From assembly GCA_965205015.1 (NCBI GenBank), contig OZ242029.1, positions 1,600,001 to 1,664,000 of the forward strand: a stretch of 64,000 nt of DNA. The letters are read 5' to 3'. Made by a program: the position numbers and the translations under genes. The stretch is from Candidatus Poribacteria bacterium. Its GTDB lineage: Bacteria > Poribacteria > WGA-4E > WGA-3G. Positions within the stretch are counted from its first letter, which is position 1. Each line of letters starts with the position of its first letter. Below are positions 2 to 59,128 of the stretch, in pieces. Under the pieces are notes generated by a model. That model did no database searches. It was not told the DNA's origin and saw nothing but the letters and a program-made list of their open reading frames with translations.

Positions 2-154
2 AGCACAACTGCTGGAAGAACCTACACCGTCTCCCTCGGTGAAACGCTTGATACCGACATCACTGTTGTTGAAATCCAGCCGAAACAAGTGACACTGGAA
101 AAAGCAGATGTGCGGCGAACCCTTCACCTCAACACCACGCCCTGGCTGAAATGA
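2..154 (+). CDS. Partial CDS (3' end), small beta-rich domain resembling GspC/PilP-type HR domain
   Basis: Open frame from the window edge: STTAGRTYTVSLGETLDTDITVVEIQPKQVTLEKADVRRTLHLNTTPWLK*. The 'G+.+...+.+.EI.P..V.L' pattern is typical of these domains. The stop is followed by an SD-like 'aaagga' before the sigma factor. Confidence 0.45.
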   Translation, partial: STTAGRTYTVSLGETLDTDITVVEIQPKQVTLEKADVRRTLHLNTTPWLK

Positions 155-170
155 AAGGAACACCTAAACT

Positions 171-746
171 TTGTTGATGCTCGACGAAAAACATCTCATC
201 ACGCGCACGCAATCCGGCGACCCTGAAGCCTTTACCCCGCTCGTCGGCAGGTATCAAGACCGCCTATATGGTCACATCAACGGACGCGTCCCAGACCCTG
301 AACTCGCCAAGGACTTGACACAAGAGACGTGGCTTCGTGCATTTCGCGCCATCAGCAGTTTCCGGGGTGACTCCGCTTTCTATTCCTGGTTGTATCGGAT
401 TGCTGAAAATGTCTGCACCGACCATTTCCGTAGGCAAAAGTATGACACCGAACCACTGCATCTTATTGACGAAAACCGCATCACCAAGACCGACCCGTGT
501 CCAAGTCGTGGCGTTGAGCGTGCAGAACTCCGACAGCTCCTTCGGGCAGCCTTGGTGGCACTCACCCCCATCCGCCGACGCGTCTTTCTGCTCTACTATC
601 ACCACGAACTGTCCATCAAAGCGATCGCCGCAGAAATCGGACGCTCCGAAGGCACCATCAAGAGCCATCTCCGCAACGCCCGTTTGCAGCTCCAAGAGTC
701 CCTCACGCCCTATCTGAGAAATCAACATGTGCCTTGGCTCGCATGA
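171..746 (+). CDS. ECF-type RNA polymerase sigma-70 factor
   Basis: Region 2 motif 'AKDLTQETWLRAFRAISSFRGDSAFYSWLYRIAEN' and region 4 motif 'LSIKAIAAEIGRSEGTIKSHLRNAR'. Confidence 0.93.
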   Translation: MLMLDEKHLITRTQSGDPEAFTPLVGRYQDRLYGHINGRVPDPELAKDLTQETWLRAFRAISSFRGDSAFYSWLYRIAENVCTDHFRRQKYDTEPLHLIDENRITKTDPCPSRGVERAELRQLLRAALVALTPIRRRVFLLYYHHELSIKAIAAEIGRSEGTIKSHLRNARLQLQESLTPYLRNQHVPWLA

Positions 747-924: not shown

Positions 925-1239
925 ACGCTCTCCCGTCAAATCCCCATACTTTCGCTTGCGGGATGTAGGCGGCGCAAGACTTTGTTGAAAAAAATAAATT
1001 CGATATTTACCGAAAAATGTAGTATACTTAGAGTATCTCGTAGGAAACCAGCATTATCAGCGTTCCCGCTTCGTAACGTGCTGGTTTCCTTCCACTGATA
1101 AGGGGATAAAAAACGAGATACGAGATATACCATGAGAAAAGCCTACAAATACAAACTTCAAAATCAATCTAACACAATCAAACTCGGCAATATGCTTGAC
1201 GATATGTGGGGTATCCACGTTCATATCATGCTTTTATAG
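925..1239 (+). mobile_element. tnpB: Remnant of a tnpB IS200/IS605 element: degenerate left end, promoter, structured leader and truncated tnpB (1132-1239)
   Basis: ORF MRKAYKYKLQNQSNTIKLGNMLDDMWGIHVHIMLL* resembles the N-terminus of the TnpB at 42540-43652 (KYEFYHQSNLIQMGNLLDDLHGVHVHLLLL). The upstream leader is near-identical to 35378-35471. Confidence 0.8.
1034..1131 (+). ncRNA. Conserved structured 5' leader of tnpB (copy A)
   Basis: Pairings TATCTCG/CGAGATA, GGAAACCAGCA/TGCTGGTTTCC and TTATCAG/CTGATAA. Homologous to three other copies in the window. Confidence 0.7.
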
Positions 1240-1248
1240 GAATACTGA

Positions 1249-16346: not shown

Positions 16347-16480
16347 TTAAAAAACTGTGGACCAAAGTGCGTAGCTCGTAATGAAATGGGGAAGGGAAGG
16401 AGGGAAGGAGGGGTGCCCCCCAATCTTCCAATCTTCCATCCCTGCAACCTTCCTGTGTAACCGCAAGGAATAATTAAAAG

Positions 16481-21373: not shown

Positions 21374-21578
21374 TTTTTAACGTTTGTGTCGTCAAAATCT
21401 GACCGTGATAACCGTGATGAAAGCGGGTTTTGATAGCACGCATCGGTAGCCTGCAACAATACGCAGAGATGCCCAAGCAAAAACACGCAGGCGGATATAC
21501 GGAAAGGAACTTCAAACTTGAAACCGACCTATCCGAACCGCAAGGTAAAATTAAAAAACCGCAAGGAATAATTAAAAA

Positions 21579-23525: not shown

Positions 23526-23720
23526 TGGTTATCGGTTGTCAGTCGTCAGTTATCAGTCACAAGAGACTTCAGTTAACCGAAAACCTCTTAACTGAAGACT
23601 CAAAATCAGCAGCCTCCAACAATACGCAGAAACACCCAAGCAAAAACACGCAAGCGACTCTTGAGAAGAGCGCATCAAAGTTCAAACTCACGTTGTTTCT
23701 CCGCAAGGTATAATTAAAAT

Positions 23721-35112: not shown

Positions 35113-35377
35113 GCCACATATGCACTTGACTTTTTTCTGATTTTGTGGTATTGTAATAGGTGAAATATTTTTAGGGGCGCAACGCGCCGTAGTGTACGTT
35201 ACATTCGGCATTCATGGCAAAAAGAACGCTCTTTTATCTACGTCAGGAGGAAGGGGAAGATAATGAAGGGCATTGTCTCACAATCCCACTGCTTTAGCTG
35301 TGGGTCAACCCCCGTAACGCCCGTGCTGGTGTCAAAAAAACATTTGCAATTGCCTTAGAAATGTGGTATAATTACAA

Positions 35378-35471
35378 TATCTCGTTGGCAAGCATTATCA
35401 GCGTTACCGCTTGGTAACGTGCTTGCCTCCCACTGATAAGGGGATAAATCGAGATACGAGATATACCACAA
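35378..35471 (+). ncRNA. Conserved structured 5' leader of tnpB (copy B)
   Basis: Follows promoter TTGCAA-17-TATAAT. Pairings TATCTCG/CGAGATA, GGCAAGCA/TGCTTGCC, TTATCAG/CTGATAA and CGTTACC/GGTAACG. Confidence 0.72.
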
Positions 35472-36564
35472 ATGGCACATAAATCCCATAAGATAGCACT
35501 TCGGGCTACACCCAAGGAAGACGCATGGTTTCGCAGTCAATGCGGTTATGCGCGATTTGCGTCTAACGCTGCTCTCTCTGATTTTAGAGGCGGCTTAGAT
35601 GCTGATATATTTTATTCAGGCATTGATCTCAATAATCGCTTTAATCAAAGGAAAAAAAGCGTATGAATGGACGAAAGCACAGGATCAACGTGCTGCGTTA
35701 TATGCTATTAAAAACCTCACAGGAGGTATAAACCGCTGGAAGGATAAGATCAGTGGATTCCCAAAGTTCAAAAGACGCGGGCATAGGTTATCCTATACCA
35801 CAGACGAACAATCAGTAAGAGTAGAAGGAAAGCGTATCAAGTTGCCCAAAATCGGTTGGGTAAAGATGTTTCAAGAGTTGCGTTTTGAAGGTGAGATCAT
35901 CCGTGTTACCATATCCAAGACGGCACATAGGTGGTTTGTCTCTATCACCGTTGACACAGGAACACCAACCCCCCCACGTGATATACGTGGACTCCCTGTT
36001 ATCGGCGTAGACGTAGGTATCAACTCACTTGCCACCCTTGATACAGGTAAACACTATGAGAACCCAAGACCTTTGAAACGCTATGAGCGAAAACTTGCGA
36101 CAGAGCAGCGCAAGTTAAGTCGTAAGAAGTTTCTATCCAACAATTGGTATAAGCAAAAAGAGAAAGTCGCGAAGGTTCATTACAAGATTGCTTGTATCCG
36201 AAAGGACGCGCACCACCAAGCGACCACAGAGATTGTGAATACGGCGAGTGCGATTGGCATAGAAACCCTGAAAGTTACGAACCTGCTCAAGAACAGGAAA
36301 CTTGCCAAGACATTATCAGATTCAGCCCTTGGCGGTTTCCTTGAGAAACTCAAATCCAAAGCAAAAGTGCTTGGGATACCGCTCAGAGAAGCCCCCCACT
36401 TTTTTGCTTCGAGTAAAACGTGTAGTAGTTGTGGGTATGTCAAAGACGAACTATCGTTATCGAAGCGTGTGTTTCACTGTGATTGGTGCGATACGAAAAT
36501 AGACAGGGACCAAAACGCTGCGATAAATCTCAAGAAGCTCGCCGTGGGCTACACGGAGAGTTAA
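35472..36564 (+). pseudogene. tnpB: TnpB RNA-guided nuclease, split by one extra A in an A7 run (35652-35658)
   Basis: The N-terminal HTH ORF 35472-35666 continues in the +1 frame; with A6 it reads NQRKKAYEW. RuvC residues GVDVG, GIETL and DRDQNAA and the zinc finger CSSC/CDWC are intact. Confidence 0.85.
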
Positions 36565-36608
36565 AACGCTTGTGGAGTTTGTGTAAGACCTCCACAGGGA
36601 GGCTACGA

Positions 36609-37844
36609 ATGAAGAAACAAGAATCCCACGACTTTAGGCGTGGGAGTATCAAAAGGGTTGTGATTATTCCACTGGTTGTCTTACTGCTTGCGGGTGTCGG
36701 TTGTGAGACAAAGCAAAAGGGTCCGAGCAATCTATCTGTAGGCAGAAGTAAATTGATTGACAGCGGTAACGCCTTGGAGGCAGTTGACCACCTCGAAAAA
36801 GCTGAACAGGAAGAGGTCAATAAACTGGAACCCCGTGCTCTACTCGTTATCGCTTACTCTCACGGGCTTTCGACGGGAAGCGCAAGTAGTCACGGCGTTG
36901 AAGCCAAGTTCAAAAATCAACGAGCACAACGGATACAAGAACTTACCGAGGCTGAGATAAAGCAAATCCTACAAATTCTCAGCACGCCCTCGCGGGTCCA
37001 AAAAGATGGCTTACAGGCACTTGTGGACAAGGGACCTGAAGCATCGGTAATTATTCTCGACAGCCTCATCAAAGGAAGGTATCCGTCGCTTCATGCAAAT
37101 TTTACGGAAATGCTGATTCAGATAGGGACTGATGCTCTTGATTTGGTTTTAGCGAAGCTGACTGATGAAACGACGCCACCTGCTGTCAAGGTTAAACTCG
37201 TTCAGGTCCTCGCTGAGATCGGCGACGCGAAAGCCATAGATGCATTAAAAGCGGTTCAAAGTGGAACGAGTGAAGCGGGTTTGGCGATGGAAATTAACAC
37301 GACGCTCTATCAGCTGGGTGAGGAATCCTATAAAAAGGACATCATCGCCGGTTTAAGTCATAGTGATGTTGTCGTCCGACGCGCCGCTGCGAAAGCCATG
37401 GCAAATCTCGGCGATGTGGCATCCAAAACACTCATTGCAGGGTTAAAAGATACCGACTCTGAAGTCGTTGCATCACTTGTGGAAGCGCTCGCAGTGCATC
37501 GCGATGCTGACGCTGTCGATGAACTCGTAAATATTCTGACCGGTGGATTGAGCAAGGATCCGAAGCAAGCAGCGATTAATACACTCGACATTTATGGACA
37601 AAACAAGCTTGCGAGAGGCTTGGCAAAGCGCATTACAATGCTGCTCATTGGCGGAACTGTTAGTGAGGCAGACAATCGGCTCCATCTCGTTCAACTTCTG
37701 AAGCGGGAACCGTTTCTGAAGCAGATTCAGGTGACAGAATTGTACGACAACCTTGAGTTCAAGCTTTATGAATATCATAAAGAAAAAGAACAGAGCGAAC
37801 TCGTTAAAACGTCGCTTAAACAACTCCTTGATGCACTTCAGTAA
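36609..37844 (+). CDS. HEAT/PBS-lyase repeat lipoprotein (paralog 1); native start displaced by the IS
   Basis: Lipobox LLLAGVGC; HEAT repeats 'VVRRAAAKAMANLG'; clear paralog of 39602-40792. The in-frame ATG at 36609, with SD AGGGAGG, lies inside the IS right end. Confidence 0.8.
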   Translation: MKKQESHDFRRGSIKRVVIIPLVVLLLAGVGCETKQKGPSNLSVGRSKLIDSGNALEAVDHLEKAEQEEVNKLEPRALLVIAYSHGLSTGSASSHGVEAKFKNQRAQRIQELTEAEIKQILQILSTPSRVQKDGLQALVDKGPEASVIILDSLIKGRYPSLHANFTEMLIQIGTDALDLVLAKLTDETTPPAVKVKLVQVLAEIGDAKAIDALKAVQSGTSEAGLAMEINTTLYQLGEESYKKDIIAGLSHSDVVVRRAAAKAMANLGDVASKTLIAGLKDTDSEVVASLVEALAVHRDADAVDELVNILTGGLSKDPKQAAINTLDIYGQNKLARGLAKRITMLLIGGTVSEADNRLHLVQLLKREPFLKQIQVTELYDNLEFKLYEYHKEKEQSELVKTSLKQLLDALQ

Positions 37845-37888
37845 GTCTGTGATAGACCCAAGTCTAAAGACTTGGGCTTCTGCAATCG

Positions 37889-39100
37889 TTACGCAGAAGC
37901 ATTTGTGGATTTCAGAATCGGATGGTTGGATTCAACGGAGCAGCCTACGATCTTGTCAAACAAAACAATAGGACTTACAACCCCTAAGCCAAAGGAAGCT
38001 ATCCCTTCCTTAAGAATATTCAGCGCAGCGTTCTCGTCGCGGTCAAGGTGCGTATTGCAACTTGGACACGTCCAGTCCCTGTCTGCTAACGTGAGGTTTT
38101 GATTTTTATGTCCACAAACACAACAGGCTTTTGTCGTCGGAGACCACCGATTGATTTTCAGCACGGAGCGAATACGCTTATGAGACTGGTGCTTGAGTTT
38201 CCGCAGGAACTCACCAAACGCAAGATCCGAGACCTGTTTCCCCCACAAGCGTTTCATACCCGCAAGGTTCAGGTCCTCAAAGAACAGTATATCAAACTTA
38301 CGACACAGTTCTATCGCCAGTTTCCAATGGTGATCTGTCCGTTGGTTCGCCGTTTTCTTGTGGATACGCGCAACGGTCTTGCGTTCGCGTTCTTGGTTGT
38401 TAGACCCTTTGACCTTACGGGAATACGCCTTTTGTGCTTCCGCTAACTTTTCAGCGTTCTGTTTGTAGAACATCGGAGACGTATATCTATGACCATCACT
38501 GCCAATCAGAAAGTCCTTGATACCCATATCAAACCCTTCAGCTTTACCCGTCTTGGGTTCGATCTTGATTTCGGTATAGTCTTCTGTCAGCGTAATATAC
38601 ATATCTCCGAGGGCATCTCGTGTTACGTGAACTTCGATGATGTGTCCCTCGATTTCACGATGCAGGGCGAAGCGATACCAACGTCCATTCAGTCGGATTT
38701 TATAGGTCGGGTGATTTCTTTGGTTTTTCTGCTTATCCAACACTTTTTCAAGCTTGACCTGTTCACCCCGAAACGTCATCCCTTTGTGTTTCTTGCAAGA
38801 CTTGAACTTTGGGTGACCTCTGCCAAGGGTTTTCATTTCTCTAAAGGATTGTGCCAAACGCTTTAGCACATTTTGCAACGCCCAAGAGTAAGGGATATTC
38901 CAATGCTGATACTTCTCAAGTTTCTTCAGTTTCGTCAAATGTTTCGACAGTTTCACATACGAAAGTCCCTTACCATAGCGGCGGTAATATCGCATACAGA
39001 GTGCCAAAAAATGATTTTTCACAACGCCACAGATATTGCAATCGTCGTGCAAGTGACGCAACGTCTTATCCTTGAAAAGTTTATGGGTCGTGTTTCGCAT
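37889..39100 (-). CDS. tnpB: TnpB RNA-guided nuclease
   Basis: RuvC D-E-D residues GFDMG, FFEDL and DRDENAA; zinc finger CCVC/CPSC. Confidence 0.93.
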   Translation of the reverse strand: MRNTTHKLFKDKTLRHLHDDCNICGVVKNHFLALCMRYYRRYGKGLSYVKLSKHLTKLKKLEKYQHWNIPYSWALQNVLKRLAQSFREMKTLGRGHPKFKSCKKHKGMTFRGEQVKLEKVLDKQKNQRNHPTYKIRLNGRWYRFALHREIEGHIIEVHVTRDALGDMYITLTEDYTEIKIEPKTGKAEGFDMGIKDFLIGSDGHRYTSPMFYKQNAEKLAEAQKAYSRKVKGSNNQERERKTVARIHKKTANQRTDHHWKLAIELCRKFDILFFEDLNLAGMKRLWGKQVSDLAFGEFLRKLKHQSHKRIRSVLKINRWSPTTKACCVCGHKNQNLTLADRDWTCPSCNTHLDRDENAALNILKEGIASFGLGVVSPIVLFDKIVGCSVESNHPILKSTNASA

Positions 39101-39194
39101 GGACTTTCAAGTCTCAAGTCTTTAACCCCTATACAGTGGGTGAGACCGACACGTAACCTTGCGGTTATGCTGTATATGTCGGTCCAACTTGATA
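39101..39194 (-). ncRNA. Conserved structured 5' leader of tnpB (copy C)
   Basis: Follows TTGACA-18-TATAAT. Pairings TCAAG/CTTGA, GACCGACA/TGTCGGTC, TATACAG/CTGTATA and TAACC-GCAA-GGTTA. Confidence 0.72.
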
Positions 39195-39601
39195 TTCTCA
39201 TTATACCACACTTTCGGACCAAATGTCAAGCAAAAAATGAACGCTTTGGTCCTTTCCAAGAGGGCGAGACTGTATCCCAAAGCTAAAGCATTGGGTTTTC
39301 GTCTCGGAAGTTTAGATAATTTGTTTCTTATCTGTCTGTACTTAAATTGTTGACAGAAAAATGTATTTATTTTAGAATATTCTTTACGTCAGTACTTGCC
39401 CAGATGTGTAATCCCTGTTTGGGAGGTTTGAATACGTTGTGATATGAAGAACCTACGGTTTTTCCTGCCAAACGCTACTGAAAAGTATTGGATCGACACT
39501 GTTTTATCTGTTTGCAAGTTGCGCACTATCTTCATGGAGTAGGCAACCGGCACGAACGGGTAAGTCTAATCGAGATTTCAGGAGGAAAAGAAAAACGGAA
39601 C

Positions 39602-40792
39602 ATGAAAAAACTTTTGCTGATATTACTACTGATAGGAGTCGTGAGTTTCGGCTGTCGGCAGGAACAGGTCATCACCCAACTTGAAGTGGGTAGGAGTAAG
39701 TTGTTAGACGCAGGGCTCACACTGGAAGCTGTCCAGCATCTTGAGAATGCTGAAAACGAAGAACAAAACAAAGTTGAACCTCGTGCACTCCTAATTATTG
39801 CTTATAGCCATGCTATTTCAACGGGCGCGGCAAGATTGCATAATGTGGAAGCCAGATATCAAACTGAACGTGATCGCCGTGTCGGTGAATTAGGCGAATA
39901 TGAGATGAAGAGGATTCTACATATCCTTGGGGAACGCCATAGGGTTCAGAAAGATGCCATGCAGGTTCTCGTTGATAAAGGGGCGCCCGCCGTGCCTTTC
40001 CTGTTAGAGGACCTCGTTAAAAACCGCTATCGCAACGTCCATGGTGACTTCGTTCAAATTTTGAAAGACATCGGTAGCCCGGCTATTAACGACCTCCTCG
40101 AGGCGGTTGGTGACAGCAAGACACCCGCTGCTGTGAAAATTCAACTCGTCCGTATCGTAGGAGATATAGGAGACGCATCCGCCATCACTAAGTTAGAGGC
40201 ACTCCATAATGCAACCCCTGATGAAGGGTTGAAGATGGAAATTAACACCGCACTCTATCATCTCGGAAACGAAGAGGCCGAATCAAAAATCGTTGAGGGC
40301 TTGACCCATGCGAACCCCGTTGTCCGACGCGCCGCCGCAAAGTCTATGATGTTCCTCAAAGAACACCCAACTGACATGTTGATTGATGCGCTTGACGATT
40401 CCGATGACACCGTGCGTATGGACATTGCTAAAGCGCTGCAGAAATATCCTGACGCGGGTGCTGTTGACGGTCTTGTCGCAATCCTCACAAACGGCTCAAG
40501 TCTCAATACGAAGCAAACCGCTATCGATACTTTGAACCTTTACGCCGAAAACGGACTCGCTGATGGATTGGCTGGACGTTTGATCGTGTTATTAGCGAAC
40601 CCTGAAGTTGTTGACCATGAAGATAGGCTCCGTATCGTTCAACTTCTCAAAAAACCTGCTTTGATAAAACAGATTCAGGAGGCTGACCAGTACGACAATC
40701 TGCCCCATAAGCTTGACGTTTACTTCAGGGAGAACGAAACCAACGATATGGTGAAAGACGCACTCAATGAACTCCTCCTTGTGCTTGAGTAG
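39602..40792 (+). CDS. HEAT/PBS-lyase repeat lipoprotein (paralog 2)
   Basis: Lipoprotein signal MKKLLLILLLIGVVSFGC; 'VVRRAAAKSM' HEAT repeats; colinear similarity to paralog 1. Confidence 0.85.
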   Translation: MKKLLLILLLIGVVSFGCRQEQVITQLEVGRSKLLDAGLTLEAVQHLENAENEEQNKVEPRALLIIAYSHAISTGAARLHNVEARYQTERDRRVGELGEYEMKRILHILGERHRVQKDAMQVLVDKGAPAVPFLLEDLVKNRYRNVHGDFVQILKDIGSPAINDLLEAVGDSKTPAAVKIQLVRIVGDIGDASAITKLEALHNATPDEGLKMEINTALYHLGNEEAESKIVEGLTHANPVVRRAAAKSMMFLKEHPTDMLIDALDDSDDTVRMDIAKALQKYPDAGAVDGLVAILTNGSSLNTKQTAIDTLNLYAENGLADGLAGRLIVLLANPEVVDHEDRLRIVQLLKKPALIKQIQEADQYDNLPHKLDVYFRENETNDMVKDALNELLLVLE

Positions 40793-41042
40793 ATACTTTT
40801 AATTGTTCGCAAAGCGTTAAATGAGGGGTCTTTGTTTATTGAATGTTTCTCTTCTATCCGCCTGCGTGTTTTTGCTTGGGGTTTTGCTTGGGTGTTTCTG
40901 CGTATTTCTGCGTATTGTTGCAGGCTGCTGTCTTAAGATAATTGTCGTAACGGTAGCCCGTAAGCGTAGCGGAGGGCGGATTAACGTGTGGTTACCTTGA
41001 TATACCAATCCACCTGACCGACCTGCAAGGTAAAATTAAAAA

Positions 41043-42209
41043 ATGCAAAATTATCCAACGGGTATCAAGATTACCAAAGTTGAACAGGTTACCGTCGAAA
41101 TTGATCAACCTGCTATTGGTTGTAACTCCCGCGCAACGGAGATTCACCAACCGGATCCGAATGCGAAATGGAACGAACGTATCATCCGCATCTATACCAA
41201 CGATGGTACCCTTGGTTGGGGGACTGGCAGTTGGGGAGCGACAACGGCTGAAAATGCGGAAGGCGTGCTCAATCAAAACCCGTTTGACCTCTTAAACCCT
41301 GAGGACGGGGTTGTTGAAGAATTTCGCGGTCTTGAAAACGCCCTATGGGACACAATCGGCAAAATCCTTGAGAAACCTGCCTATCAGCTCATCGGTGATG
41401 ATGTTTTTTCAAACGGATTGCCCGCTTACGACAGCACTATCTATTTCAACGATCTCCTGTATGAGACAAAAGCCGAAGGACTTCAACGCATCGAGAATGA
41501 TGTCAAAAGTAGTCTCGCCAATGGGTTTACCGCATGCAAAATGAAAATCGGGCGCGGTAGCTATCTCATGGAACGCATGGCGGGACTGCAACGGGACATA
41601 GAACTCGTCCAACTTGCCCGTAGCACCGCAGGCGAAGGCTTCAATATCCTCGTTGATGCAAACAATGCCTACACCTACGATGAAGTCATCACCTTTTTGA
41701 ACGAAACGAGTGATTGTGATGTCTTTTGGATAGAAGAGATGTTTGAGGAAGAAGTTGAATTGTACCGCAACCTCAAAGCGTTCATCCAAGAAAAGGGATT
41801 GAAAACCTTCATTGCCGATGGCGAAACCCGTACGCGCGACCCGCTTGAATTCTATGATCCTTTCTTTGAGGCGGGTGTTATCGATGTCATTCAGCACGAT
41901 ATGAAGGGGCTTGGCGTTACTGGCTGGCGGCGACTTGCCGATATGGCTGCGGCGCACGGTGTCCGGTGCGCCCCTCATAACTGGGGGTCTCTTCTCGGTT
42001 TCTACCTCAGTCTCCAATTCGGCAAAACGATTCCCCATTTCCTCTACGGCGAAGTCGCAACCCTCACGAGCGATGTAATCGATACTTCTAACTACGTTTT
42101 CACCGGTGGAACGTTCACGGTACCGGATACCCCCGGACTTGGACTGGCGCTCAATGAAGATGTGTACGACGATCGCTACGCCGGAAAAGAGGACTGGCAG
42201 ATCAGCTAA
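41043..42209 (+). CDS. Mandelate racemase/muconate lactonizing enzyme (enolase superfamily)
   Basis: Motifs ALWDTIGK, KMKIG, VDAN, WIEE, DGE, APHNW and PDTPGLG. Confidence 0.88.
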   Translation: MQNYPTGIKITKVEQVTVEIDQPAIGCNSRATEIHQPDPNAKWNERIIRIYTNDGTLGWGTGSWGATTAENAEGVLNQNPFDLLNPEDGVVEEFRGLENALWDTIGKILEKPAYQLIGDDVFSNGLPAYDSTIYFNDLLYETKAEGLQRIENDVKSSLANGFTACKMKIGRGSYLMERMAGLQRDIELVQLARSTAGEGFNILVDANNAYTYDEVITFLNETSDCDVFWIEEMFEEEVELYRNLKAFIQEKGLKTFIADGETRTRDPLEFYDPFFEAGVIDVIQHDMKGLGVTGWRRLADMAAAHGVRCAPHNWGSLLGFYLSLQFGKTIPHFLYGEVATLTSDVIDTSNYVFTGGTFTVPDTPGLGLALNEDVYDDRYAGKEDWQIS

Positions 42210-42539
42210 TTCTTTACTGAGGATAACGCCCGGTTCCTCCATAAACGGGACGCGTATGAAGGCATCCGGTTTCTAAAAGCGACCCGCCTCTACCTCTCCC
42301 CCAAATGCTTTGCTGTCCCCGACTAATTGAGCTACAACCCATTCCATCACCCCACTCGGTAGGCGAGGTTTCTAACCTCGCCGGTTCTCCGTTTAAGGTA
42401 TCTCCACTGTGATACCACCCAACGCCTAAAGGCGTGGGCTTCGGTTTCATCGCAACTGCGGTTTTCGCTCAAGCGTCCACCGTCTTACTGTCGCTCCACC
42501 CGCGGGTTCTTATTCCGAATCAGATCGGTTTTATCTGGT

Positions 42540-43652
42540 TTAGGTCCAGGGTACCCCAACCCGCAAAATGTTTCGCGCAGCGTTGATATCCCGATCATGG
42601 TACGAACCACAGTCAGAACACGTCCAATATCGGTCTGAAAGCGTTAGGTCTTTGTTGCGATAGCCACAATCCGAACAAGGTTTTGTGGTCGCTGCCCAAC
42701 GCCCCGCTTTCAATAAGGTTTTACCGTATTTGGCACACATCCAGCGAAGTATCAATGAGAACTCACCAAAAGCGAGGTCAGAGACTTTGCGACCCCACAG
42801 CCGTTTCATACCCTCAAGGTTCAGCGTCTCAATCGCAATCTTATCGTATCTACGCACAAGCCGAAGTGCCAACTTGAAGAACCAGTCGCGTCTTCTATTG
42901 GCTATATCCTTATTGACGCGTGCGAGGTGTCGTTTGGCACGAAACCAGCTGTTAGAAAGATACTGCTTACGAGAGAGTGCCTTGTTTGCGGAACGAATTT
43001 CATTGAGGCTTTGCTTGAAAAACTCCGGGGACGCTATCTTGATACCGTCTGAAAGCGTCAGGAATGTTTTCATACCGAAATCTGCCCCTGCCTCATGACC
43101 GGTCAATGGGAGTTTTTCGGAAGGTTCACAATCCTCACACGTCAGATACAAATAGTAGTCACCTACGGGATCACGCTTGATTGTTACAGTTTTTATCGTG
43201 CCTGTCCACTCACGGTGTTTCCAAAACGTAAATGACGTGTTTAGGCACTTGATATGAATGCGATTGTCTTCTATCTCATAACCGGCTTGCGTGAACGTCA
43301 ATGAGTTATACTTGTGTTGTGGCTTTATCTTTGGCTTGCCGACTTTGCGCGGTGATAACCCTTTCTTTTTCGCATCGAGGTAGTCAAAGAACTTGTCATA
43401 TCCAAGATGAATACGCTTGGCGACTTGTTGGATTACCTGACTTGGCAGTTGTTTCCAATGCGGTTGCGTCCGATGTTTCAACTTCGTTATATGCGCGCAG
43501 ATACGCCCAAACGAGGCATACTTGCCATAGATACGATAATAGCGTCTCTGCAATAAAAGCAAGTGGACATGCACGCCATGCAAGTCGTCAAGCAGATTCC
43601 CCATCTGTATGAGATTCGACTGATGATAGAACTCATATTTTTCGGTGTTCAT
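42540..43652 (-). CDS. tnpB: TnpB RNA-guided nuclease
   Basis: RuvC residues GADFG, AIETL and DRDINAA; zinc finger CSDC/CSDC. Confidence 0.93.
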   Translation of the reverse strand: MNTEKYEFYHQSNLIQMGNLLDDLHGVHVHLLLLQRRYYRIYGKYASFGRICAHITKLKHRTQPHWKQLPSQVIQQVAKRIHLGYDKFFDYLDAKKKGLSPRKVGKPKIKPQHKYNSLTFTQAGYEIEDNRIHIKCLNTSFTFWKHREWTGTIKTVTIKRDPVGDYYLYLTCEDCEPSEKLPLTGHEAGADFGMKTFLTLSDGIKIASPEFFKQSLNEIRSANKALSRKQYLSNSWFRAKRHLARVNKDIANRRRDWFFKLALRLVRRYDKIAIETLNLEGMKRLWGRKVSDLAFGEFSLILRWMCAKYGKTLLKAGRWAATTKPCSDCGYRNKDLTLSDRYWTCSDCGSYHDRDINAARNILRVGVPWT

Positions 43653-43746
43653 GGACGCTCAAGTATCAAGTCTTTAACCCCTATAGAGTGGGTAGGACCG
43701 ACACGTTACCAAGCGGTAACGCTCTATATGTCGGTCCAACTTGATA
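43653..43746 (-). ncRNA. Conserved structured 5' leader of tnpB (copy D)
   Basis: Follows a consensus TTGACA-17-TATAAT. Pairings TATCAAG/CTTGATA, GGACCGACA/TGTCGGTCC, TATAGAG/CTCTATA and CGTTACC/GGTAACG. Confidence 0.75.
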
Positions 43747-44146
43747 CGCTCATTATACAATATTTGGGGCGAAATGTCAAGTCTTTTTTTGATAAAGGTT
43801 TGGACCTTTCCAAGAGAGCGGATTTTCATCCCAAACCTGAAGGATTGGGAAACCTTCAATCCGTCAATGCCCGTAAGATCGATCTCCCGATCGCGACTCT
43901 TCGTCAAAAGTGCTATATCTATCCTCTACCACTTTTCCCTGACAAGTCCCCCTTTTATGTGGTATAATTATTAACGTGAATTTGACTTCAGCAGCGTAGG
44001 TTGGGTTGAGCGGAACATCAAAAACCAAACGCTTATGACGCAGGAAATTTCCATTCCAAAAGGCTTGGATGCTCTGAAATTCCAGCGAAACCCAACACTT
44101 CAACTGCTTGTAGGGGTATATGAACGGAAAAAAGAAGGAGTGTATC

Positions 44147-59038: not shown

Positions 59039-59128
59039 GTTTTAATTATTCCTTGCGGTTCGGTCAGAGGGTTGGTTAAACAACATTACCCACCGTAGGT
59101 CCGCCTATTCCGTTGTTGCAGGCTACAA

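Follow-up and report, generated by a model that had tools for sequence, protein, structure and literature searches.

The window analysed here, by which we mean the whole stretch of 64,000 nucleotides (nt) from a Candidatus Poribacteria bacterium (assembly GCA_965205015.1, contig OZ242029.1, positions 1,600,001 to 1,664,000), contains four insertion sequence (IS) loci organised around a tnpB gene, intact or degraded, and in each of them a leader of about 100 nt occupies the interval between the predicted transcription start and the tnpB ATG. These four leaders share one fold, which is the subject of this study. The covariance model R1, which was built on 39 copies of the leader and contains the helices P0, P1 and P3 only, without the pseudoknot (PK) and the helix P4, gives exactly four matches in the window (79-106 bits), and tblastn finds no tnpB in the window beyond these four loci. 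The core motif CCACTNNNNAGGGGWTAAA occurs 4 times in the window against 0.15 expected, and the single-sequence folds of the four leaders have z-scores of -3.4 to -6.4, far below those of shuffles. A previous sequence-only reading of this DNA had proposed that one architecture is shared by the four loci, precedes every tnpB gene and is common to divergent TnpB proteins, and within the window these statements hold: the leaders have a mean column identity of 78% in a four-copy alignment, against 30-40% identity of their TnpB proteins. The features are the following, the helices being given for leader copy 4 (aa, amino acids).

1026..1135, + strand: leader copy 1 (R1 match, 79.3 bits; long-P1 variant), preceding a tnpB remnant of ~35 codons
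35370..35471, + strand: leader copy 2 (R1 match, 106 bits), preceding a frameshifted tnpB
39097..39202, - strand: leader copy 3 (R1 match, 89.9 bits), preceding an intact 403-aa tnpB
43649..43754, - strand: leader copy 4 (R1 match, 100.4 bits)
43746-43740, - strand: P0 5' strand
43737-43729 with 43703-43695, - strand: P1
43728-43722 (PK 5') with 43688-43682 (PK 3'), - strand: PK
43721-43704, - strand: P3 (loop GCTT)
43693-43690 (ACCC) with 43680-43677 (GGGT), - strand: P4
43676-43671, - strand: J4/0
43670-43664 (copy 1) and 43663-43657 (copy 2), - strand: P0 3' strands
43652-43650, - strand: start codon ATG after leader copy 4
35343..35372, + strand: promoter of element 2, 10/12 consensus
39200..39229, - strand: promoter of element 3, TTGACA-18-TATAAT, 12/12 consensus
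43752..43780, - strand: promoter of element 4, TTGACA-17-TATAAT, 12/12 consensus
1133..1240, + strand: tnpB 1 remnant, N-terminus like that of tnpB 4, stop after ~35 codons
35472..36564, + strand: tnpB 2, frameshift-split, 30% identical to tnpB 4
37889..39100, - strand: tnpB 3, 403 aa, OrfB_IS605 and TNB domains (Pfam), 40% identical to tnpB 4
42540..43652, - strand: tnpB 4, 370 aa, OrfB_IS605 and Cas12f1-like TNB domains (Pfam)
942..962, + strand: left-end hairpin, element 1
35285..35304, + strand: left-end hairpin, element 2
39276..39295, - strand: left-end hairpin, element 3
43830..43849, - strand: left-end (TnpA-type) hairpin, element 4
36625..36652, + strand: right-end hairpin and AGTATCAA terminus, element 2
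37849..37876, - strand: right-end hairpin and TCTATCAC terminus, element 3
42409..42438, - strand: right-end hairpin and TGGTATCAC terminus, element 4; the omega-RNA scaffold is expected to have its 3' end here

The elements are composed, in order, of TTAC, the left boundary, about 20 nt, the left-end hairpin with an AAAG foot, about 40 nt, the promoter, the leader and tnpB, followed on the right side by the right-end hairpin with (T)ATCAC or ATCAA and the right boundary. The boundaries were deduced from the comparison of copies with differing flanks within one Poribacteria genome (G003), and the window shows the matching motifs; element 4 begins at 43872, directly after TTAC (43876-43873). 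By the TTAC next to the left-end hairpin, the TCAC or TCAA that ends the right-end hairpin and their Pfam domains, the host elements belong to the IS1341 type (tnpB only) of the IS200/IS605 group. In tnpB 2, the frameshift lies near 35600-35666, between the open reading frames (ORFs) 35472-35666 (64 aa) and 35599-36564 (321 aa). Since the boundaries and the end hairpins lie outside the promoter-leader-tnpB unit, the leader is internal to the element. As had been stated from the sequence, it is neither the left-end hairpin recognised by TnpA, a separate hairpin of this kind being present upstream of the promoter, nor the omega RNA, the leader lying 5' of the ATG and the right-end hairpins and termini 1.1-1.3 kb downstream. 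Its limits are also those that had been described, a few nt past the -10 box and the ATG: each locus has a promoter of the sigma-70 type, the consensus promoters end 5 nt before P0 (in element 4, 5 nt separate the end of the -10 box from the P0 5' strand), and the P0 5' strand would constitute the first transcribed bases. An N-terminal extension of tnpB into the leader is ruled out by an in-frame stop.

The fold is a three-way junction that brings together the closing stem P0, the helix P1 continued by P3, and the hairpin P4. P3 is a 7-base-pair (bp) stem with a tetraloop, and a 7-8-nt bulge that separates it from P1 pairs with the loop of P4. The linear order read from the sequence (P0-P1-PK-P3-P1'-CCCA-PK'-GGGGWTAAA-P0' twice-ATG) is correct, and the pseudoknot it contained is retained in a revised form: because the bases that flank the PK 3' strand pair with one another, thereby adding the helix P4, the pseudoknot is a hairpin loop kissing the bulge between P1 and P3. 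The P4 pairings encountered are UCCC/GGGA, ACCC/GGGU, UCUC/GAGA, UCCU/AGGA and ACCU/AGGU, with ACCG/CGGT and AACCT/AGGTT in divergent copies, and among 87 copies, 42 have A-U as the outer pair and 40 have U-A. Hardly any variation is seen in the junction strands UU and (A/U)UAAA; J4/0 keeps a constant length in 79 of 87 copies, and P1 begins with a G-C pair in 85 of 87.

The evidence for this fold comes from the alignment A3, in which 87 distinct copies were aligned to R1. Covariance models do not represent pseudoknots and R1 holds neither PK nor P4, so the pairing counts of these two elements are independent of the model. Standard pairs occupy 96.5% of the 2813 cells of A3, against 78% after shuffling and 33-53% with slid partners, changes on both sides are found at 30 of the 33 pairs, and the covariation score reaches 0.52, a value that falls to 0.17 on shuffling and to 0.03-0.05 with slid partners; the claim that the pairing is kept while the sequence varies is therefore borne out. 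PK is paired in 96.2% of its cells, with three or four pair types at each of its four central positions. This is the unbiased count, the 100% PK pairing of a previous alignment, A2, being partly circular because its copies had been picked by pseudoknot complementarity. The PK is broken in L063 and L074, which have one mismatch apiece and lack the ATG, and in the chimera L087. G-U cells (89) are far more frequent than A-C cells (23), and the same is seen in P3 (55 versus 3), which indicates that the structured strand is the sense strand.

The P3 tip accepts a GC-rich insertion of about 25 nt (CCCCTTCC..GTAACGG..GGGG..CCCC) in at least 12 copies (L012, L098, L140, L143, L153, L161, L164-L166 and L169-L171), which may be a small inserted hairpin module. 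Three leaders are chimeras with halves of different types: in L087 (3842-3947), P0 and PK are broken, and in L058 (2017-2123) and L110 (2747-2852), a long P1 5' strand faces a short 3' strand. These chimeras suggest recombination between IS copies within the leader, and the promoter-leader module would then have been exchanged among IS lineages.

No Rfam family accounts for the leader. With Rfam 15, the sole match in the whole window at the gathering score is a tRNA, the interval 35200-44000 searched at E up to 10 gives four weak matches, none within a leader, and nine variant loci searched at E up to 1 give only a weak HgcC match, at the right end of L135; the leader therefore passes the Rfam check that had been called for without a match. 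A search of the literature on TnpB, Poribacteria, riboswitch candidates and IS605-orfB revealed no account of it, nor did the consulted parts of PMC10691335, PMC13565253 and PMC11109978, and a literal search of a 2026 OMEGA review does not return the words 'UTR', 'leader' or 'translation'. Structured leaders that limit a transposon gene are of a known kind, with examples in IS10 and IS200. We found no earlier report of the fold, of the tandem-register platform described below or of one leader serving both tnpB and restriction-modification genes.

The strand order of the inner part of the leader raises the question of an activation by processing, in which a ribozyme or an RNase would cut at J0/1 or in the A-rich J4/0 and thereby release the start region, in the manner of type I toxin mRNAs. 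Without P4, the topology P1-PK-(P3)-P1'-linker-PK' is, from what is generally known of these ribozymes, that of the nested pseudoknot of the hepatitis delta virus (HDV) family; single-stranded UU and AUAAA are conserved and the downstream genes are potentially toxic. However, P3 has 7 bp and a tetraloop, hence the HDV-like L3 and P1.1 elements are missing, the first P1 pair is the G-C already mentioned and not G-U, and no Rfam ribozyme family matches even at E up to 10. We consider such a processing very improbable.

A further property of the leader is found at its 3' end, where the P0 3' strand is present as two tandem copies that both covary with the 5' strand, the cells of the P0 helix being paired at 93.8% with copy 1 and at 92.3% with copy 2. 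The end of copy 1 is exactly 11 nt upstream of the ATG in 55 of 73 leaders and 10-12 nt upstream of it in 70 of 73, the distance from the end of copy 2 to the AUG being 4 nt in the main family. The two registers are near in energy: the value on copy 2 minus that on copy 1 has a median of +2.5 kcal/mol. R1 misses two divergent tnpB leaders, L133 and L135, in which copy 2, the complement of the 5' strand, includes the ATG; upstream of it stands a near-copy, and between both there is a Shine-Dalgarno-like run. The duplication is also kept, with another sequence (ACUGG twice), in the host-type subfamily of leaders described below. That a tandem target is conserved in leaders of unrelated sequence is our chief reason for proposing a gate on translation with two registers.

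The model we propose, and which we hold to be rather probable, is that the leader is a structured 5'-untranslated RNA acting in cis on the following gene by means of such a gate. The pairing of the P0 5' strand with copy 1 would close the junction and leave the start region free (ON), and the sliding of the same strand to copy 2 would bury the start region (OFF), copy 2 covering the AUG itself in the two divergent variants. The choice of the register would be set by the folding of the pseudoknotted domain, perhaps under the influence of a ligand or of a protein. A cis-acting translational switch, which was among the proposals made from the sequence, stays the best reading of the leader.

Several observations weigh against this model. 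The switch is deduced from sequence alone, and single-stranded DNA (ssDNA) of the same strand would give an identical covariation. The energy gap between the two registers extends from -6 to +16 kcal/mol across the copies, some of which do not look bistable, and about 16-18% of the copies have imperfections in the two outer P0 pairs. Copy 2 of the main family does not reach the AUG, and these leaders have no evident Shine-Dalgarno sequence, so that occlusion is no more than plausible; numerous host genes of the window are likewise devoid of a Shine-Dalgarno sequence. Finally, the RNA data are assembled contigs of relatives from two metatranscriptome runs, which are uninformative on start, processing and expression level: the contigs extend past the -10 box and give no transcript ends.

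A simpler function can be imagined for the same structure, namely a passive leader whose paired 5' end stabilises the mRNA and fixes a low level of translation, the second 3' copy being a redundancy. The 5' end is indeed paired from about the first transcribed base and register 1 is favoured in most copies; but the tandem copy is conserved and covarying in both subfamilies despite their unrelated sequences, copy 2 overlaps the AUG in variants, and a pseudoknotted junction exceeds the needs of a stabilising stem, so that we find this passive role improbable. Two other arrangements of the start region were rejected. An upstream ORF coupled to tnpB via ATGA occurs in just 24 of the 73 ATG-bearing leaders and was dropped as a general mechanism, and the GGGG cannot serve as the tnpB Shine-Dalgarno sequence, as it lies about 25 nt from the ATG and is the 3' strand of P4.

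The leader is abundant in Poribacteria. A pattern scan restricted to a single genome of each species gave at least 116 loci; among the matches listed, the fold is present in all 42 loci with a Poribacteria title, 40 of them being confirmed with R1, and the other 74 show no intact fold as judged by a pseudoknot-complement filter and by eye only. Among these 74, L107 passed the filter by chance and L053, from an untitled bacterium, is a leader cut by a contig end. R1 finds more than 1,000 matches in total, distributed over 77 of the 150 genomes of the phylum searched. In other phyla, a structure descriptor that gives scores of 36-44 on 9 of 10 known leaders and of at most 35 on 300 random windows did not exceed 32 on 27 regions upstream of TnpB-sized ORFs (two cyanobacterial genomes and one of Ktedonobacteraceae); in this small sample the fold was not found, which does not demonstrate its absence.

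The association with tnpB was counted in three Poribacteria genomes, in which R1 gives 41, 24 and 32 matches, these leader copy numbers being lower bounds. A TNB domain is found at most 1.8 kb downstream of 83 of the 97 R1 leaders, and the linkage to tnpB, for which a search in Poribacteria had been suggested as a test, is therefore present for the IS-type leaders. Conversely, an R1 leader lies upstream of 83 of 125 tnpB matches with a TNB domain and is missing from 42 of 125, so the leader does not precede every tnpB genome-wide. Ten of the tnpB loci without an R1 leader were inspected: four lie behind a Y1 tnpA, the stop and start codons overlapping, two lie behind a serine recombinase, three stand alone and have leaders that are divergent in sequence but alike in architecture, and one is a 528-aa ORF without leader. 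None of the seven inspected tnpB copies that are linked to tnpA or to a serine recombinase has a leader; operons of the tnpA-tnpB and IS607 types are devoid of it.

Furthermore, weak R1 matches led to a sister subfamily, the host-type leaders, modelled as R2 and R3, which retains all the helices (89% of cells paired and changes on both sides at 23 of 32 pairs, in an alignment that is partly out of register) and stands in front of genes other than tnpB. R3 has matches in 82 of 150 genomes, a number that is not a count of host-type leaders because IS-type leaders also score, at lower values. The genes were classified at one locus per genome in 30 genomes, chosen as best matches. Behind 18 of the 30 leaders lies a small 'MKTIL...' protein (113-141 aa) that combines a signal peptide with a coiled coil and a membrane helix; N6/N4 DNA methyltransferases follow 3, a BglII-family restriction endonuclease 1 and an 85-86-aa coiled-coil protein 2, the remainder preceding proteins without assignment (3/30) or no clear ORF (3/30). 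In L183, a host-type leader is followed, after about 220 nt, by an operon that encodes an MvaI/BcnI endonuclease and a methyltransferase. An IS-type leader can also be separated from tnpB: in L089 it precedes a 153-aa membrane protein, and L150 and L169 have this downstream sequence behind their leader as well. The small proteins behind the leaders have no Pfam match above the cut-off. IS end hairpins are absent from the three host-type class-A loci checked (L180-L182) and from the vicinity of the non-tnpB leader of L089.

Two further cases with host-type leaders deserve a separate mention. On the 30.9-kb contig C2 of genome G003 (L137, L180 and L181), which may be a plasmid or a phage-like replicon, two 'MKTIL' genes have host-type leaders and a tnpB has a divergent one. 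In L218 (172-282), the host-type leader is followed by the gene of a secreted protein of 409 aa whose N-terminal region is rich in histidine.

These distributions bear on two further explanations. The first one, that the leader is specific to TnpB, as an autoregulatory site mimicking the omega RNA or as a second RNA subunit, had been advanced from the sequence and draws on the predominance of tnpB behind R1 leaders in the three genomes and on the fact that TnpB is an RNA-binding protein that recognises a pseudoknotted RNA. It is disfavoured by the presence of the fold before methyltransferases, restriction enzymes (of the BglII and MvaI/BcnI kinds) and small membrane proteins without tnpB, by the tnpB copies that lack an R1 leader, those linked to tnpA or a serine recombinase among them, and by the service of a single leader type to TnpBs as distant as those of the window; no likeness of the leader to the right-end region was seen. 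We consider this proposal highly improbable. In the comparison with the omega RNA and the right end, only a short TATCA string proved to be in common, the variable part of P0 being independent of the right-end terminus.

The second explanation, that the fold is an ssDNA structure serving the peel-and-paste transposition of the top strand, takes advantage of the fact that the top strand of IS200/IS605 elements has the sequence of the mRNA and that covariation is blind to the difference between DNA and RNA. But the elements already possess canonical hairpins at both ends, together with the cleavage sites TTAC and TCAC/TCAA, the fold spans exactly the interval from promoter to ATG, G-U pairs are many, and the fold is found on genes outside any IS. 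The occurrence of the fold before non-IS genes without end hairpins nearby and its absence from tnpB genes behind tnpA both argue for an RNA and not for a transposition DNA, and a role in ssDNA is, in our opinion, barely credible.

The RNA gate could nevertheless be refined into a true sensor, riboswitch or protein-binding operator, whose junction would bind a small molecule or a host protein and co-regulate tnpB, restriction-modification and membrane-protein genes. The three-way junction resembles that of an aptamer, with its long-range contact between loop and bulge, its invariant A122 and UAAA and its closing helix provided with an alternative partner; the gene set is varied in many genomes, and the P3 tip accepts its insertion of about 25 nt as the peripheral stems of aptamers do. 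Yet conserved unpaired nucleotides are few for a ligand pocket and the controlled genes have no common metabolic theme that would point to a ligand, and we regard this refinement as possible but doubtful.

What the controlled genes (tnpB nucleases, restriction-modification, small membrane proteins) share is rather a potential harm to the cell. The leader is probably a portable promoter-leader module of Poribacteria for risky genes, external to the machinery of TnpB and its omega RNA. Could it also be a sensing RNA of a new class, provided with a register-shift platform, by which one signal would govern TnpB, restriction-modification and small membrane proteins in the sponge-symbiont Poribacteria? 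We think this unlikely; if so, the common signal could be an attack by phages, damage to the DNA or a nucleotide messenger, among others, and insertion sequences would either have taken over a defence-gene switch of the host or have been the source of one.

Other observations concern the surroundings of the leaders. The HgcC match of L135, which scores 25 bits with an E of 0.015 and does not reach the gathering score, is located at 119-216 (- strand), where the tnpB element has its 3' end, and fits the omega/sotRNA region. In the metatranscriptome contigs of two libraries, the highest summed depth is reached at 42357-42584, in the right-end and 3'-tnpB region where the omega RNA is expected, this depth being inflated on conserved parts by multi-copy mapping and not a measure of expression. 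Between the IS copies there are two genes, visibly paralogues (36483-37844 and 39488-40792, both + strand), whose products of about 400 aa have helical repeats and an N-terminus like that of lipoproteins; the ORF listed at 36483-37844 opens inside the right end of element 2 and its true start would be further downstream. Finally, the motif CCGCAAGG(A/T)A(A/T)AATTAAAA stands directly before the ATG of many host genes of the window (12 matches against 0.1 expected, including 16461-16479, 21538-21577, 23701-23719, 41023-41041 and 59040-59058) and looks like a -10-type promoter positioned for leaderless transcripts; its CCGCAAGG core is identical to a frequent P3 hairpin of the leaders.

In conclusion, our observations emphasize a covariation-backed and abundant leader fold that ties mobile nucleases to defence genes by one RNA device, at a point, the control of TnpB expression, that is little described. 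They would provide a compact switch design based on the register shift of a strand along a tandem repeat, and an evolutionary case in which promoter-leader modules appear to be swapped among insertion-sequence lineages.

Different known systems resemble parts of this leader. With the HDV-like ribozymes it shares, as far as these are generally known, the strand order of a nested pseudoknot and a position at the 5' end of a mobile-element transcript, and it differs from them by the absence of L3/P1.1, of an HDV-type P4, of the cleavage-site G-U and of any Rfam ribozyme match. The IS605-orfB-I and -II motifs of Rfam are, like the leader, structured motifs tied to the IS605 orfB, that is tnpB (names from the consulted part of the Rfam 15 paper, details from general background); neither they nor any other Rfam family matched the leader in the searches reported above. 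The omega RNA or reRNA of TnpB, the sotRNA and HgcC are also pseudoknotted structured RNAs of the same IS element and the same strand (in part from the consulted sections of PMC10097598 and PMC4615843, otherwise from general background). The omega RNA, however, lies at the 3' or right end of tnpB and carries a guide derived from the flank, whereas the leader is 5', has no guide position and occurs without tnpB.

The mRNAs of the type I toxins hok, tisB and zorO are locked by their 5' untranslated region (UTR). In them too, potentially toxic genes are silenced at the level of translation by a long-range pairing of the 5' end; the leader is far more elaborate and conserved, and neither an antisense RNA nor a processing site was seen. 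The fold-back inhibition of IS10 and IS50 and the 5'-UTR stem-loop of IS200 tnpA are simple hairpins on transposase genes. The likeness lies in a transposon gene held low by the pairing of an upstream strand with the translation start (consulted part of PMC5435999 and general background). The difference is that the leader is a pseudoknotted three-way junction with two tandem targets, that its 5' strand is part of the element's own transcript, and that it also stands on non-transposon genes.

The purine and tetrahydrofolate (THF) riboswitches are three-way junction aptamers with a distal loop contact. The leader has in common with riboswitches a conserved and covarying aptamer-like fold in 5' UTRs and, with these two, a closing helix that has an alternative 3' partner, a long-range Watson-Crick contact, conserved junction strands and a variable peripheral stem. 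It is distinguished from them by the lack of an Rfam match, by the hypervariability of its contact helix, by its genes, which encode nucleases, methylases and membrane proteins and belong to no metabolic pathway, and by its platform, which would be a register shift onto a tandem repeat.

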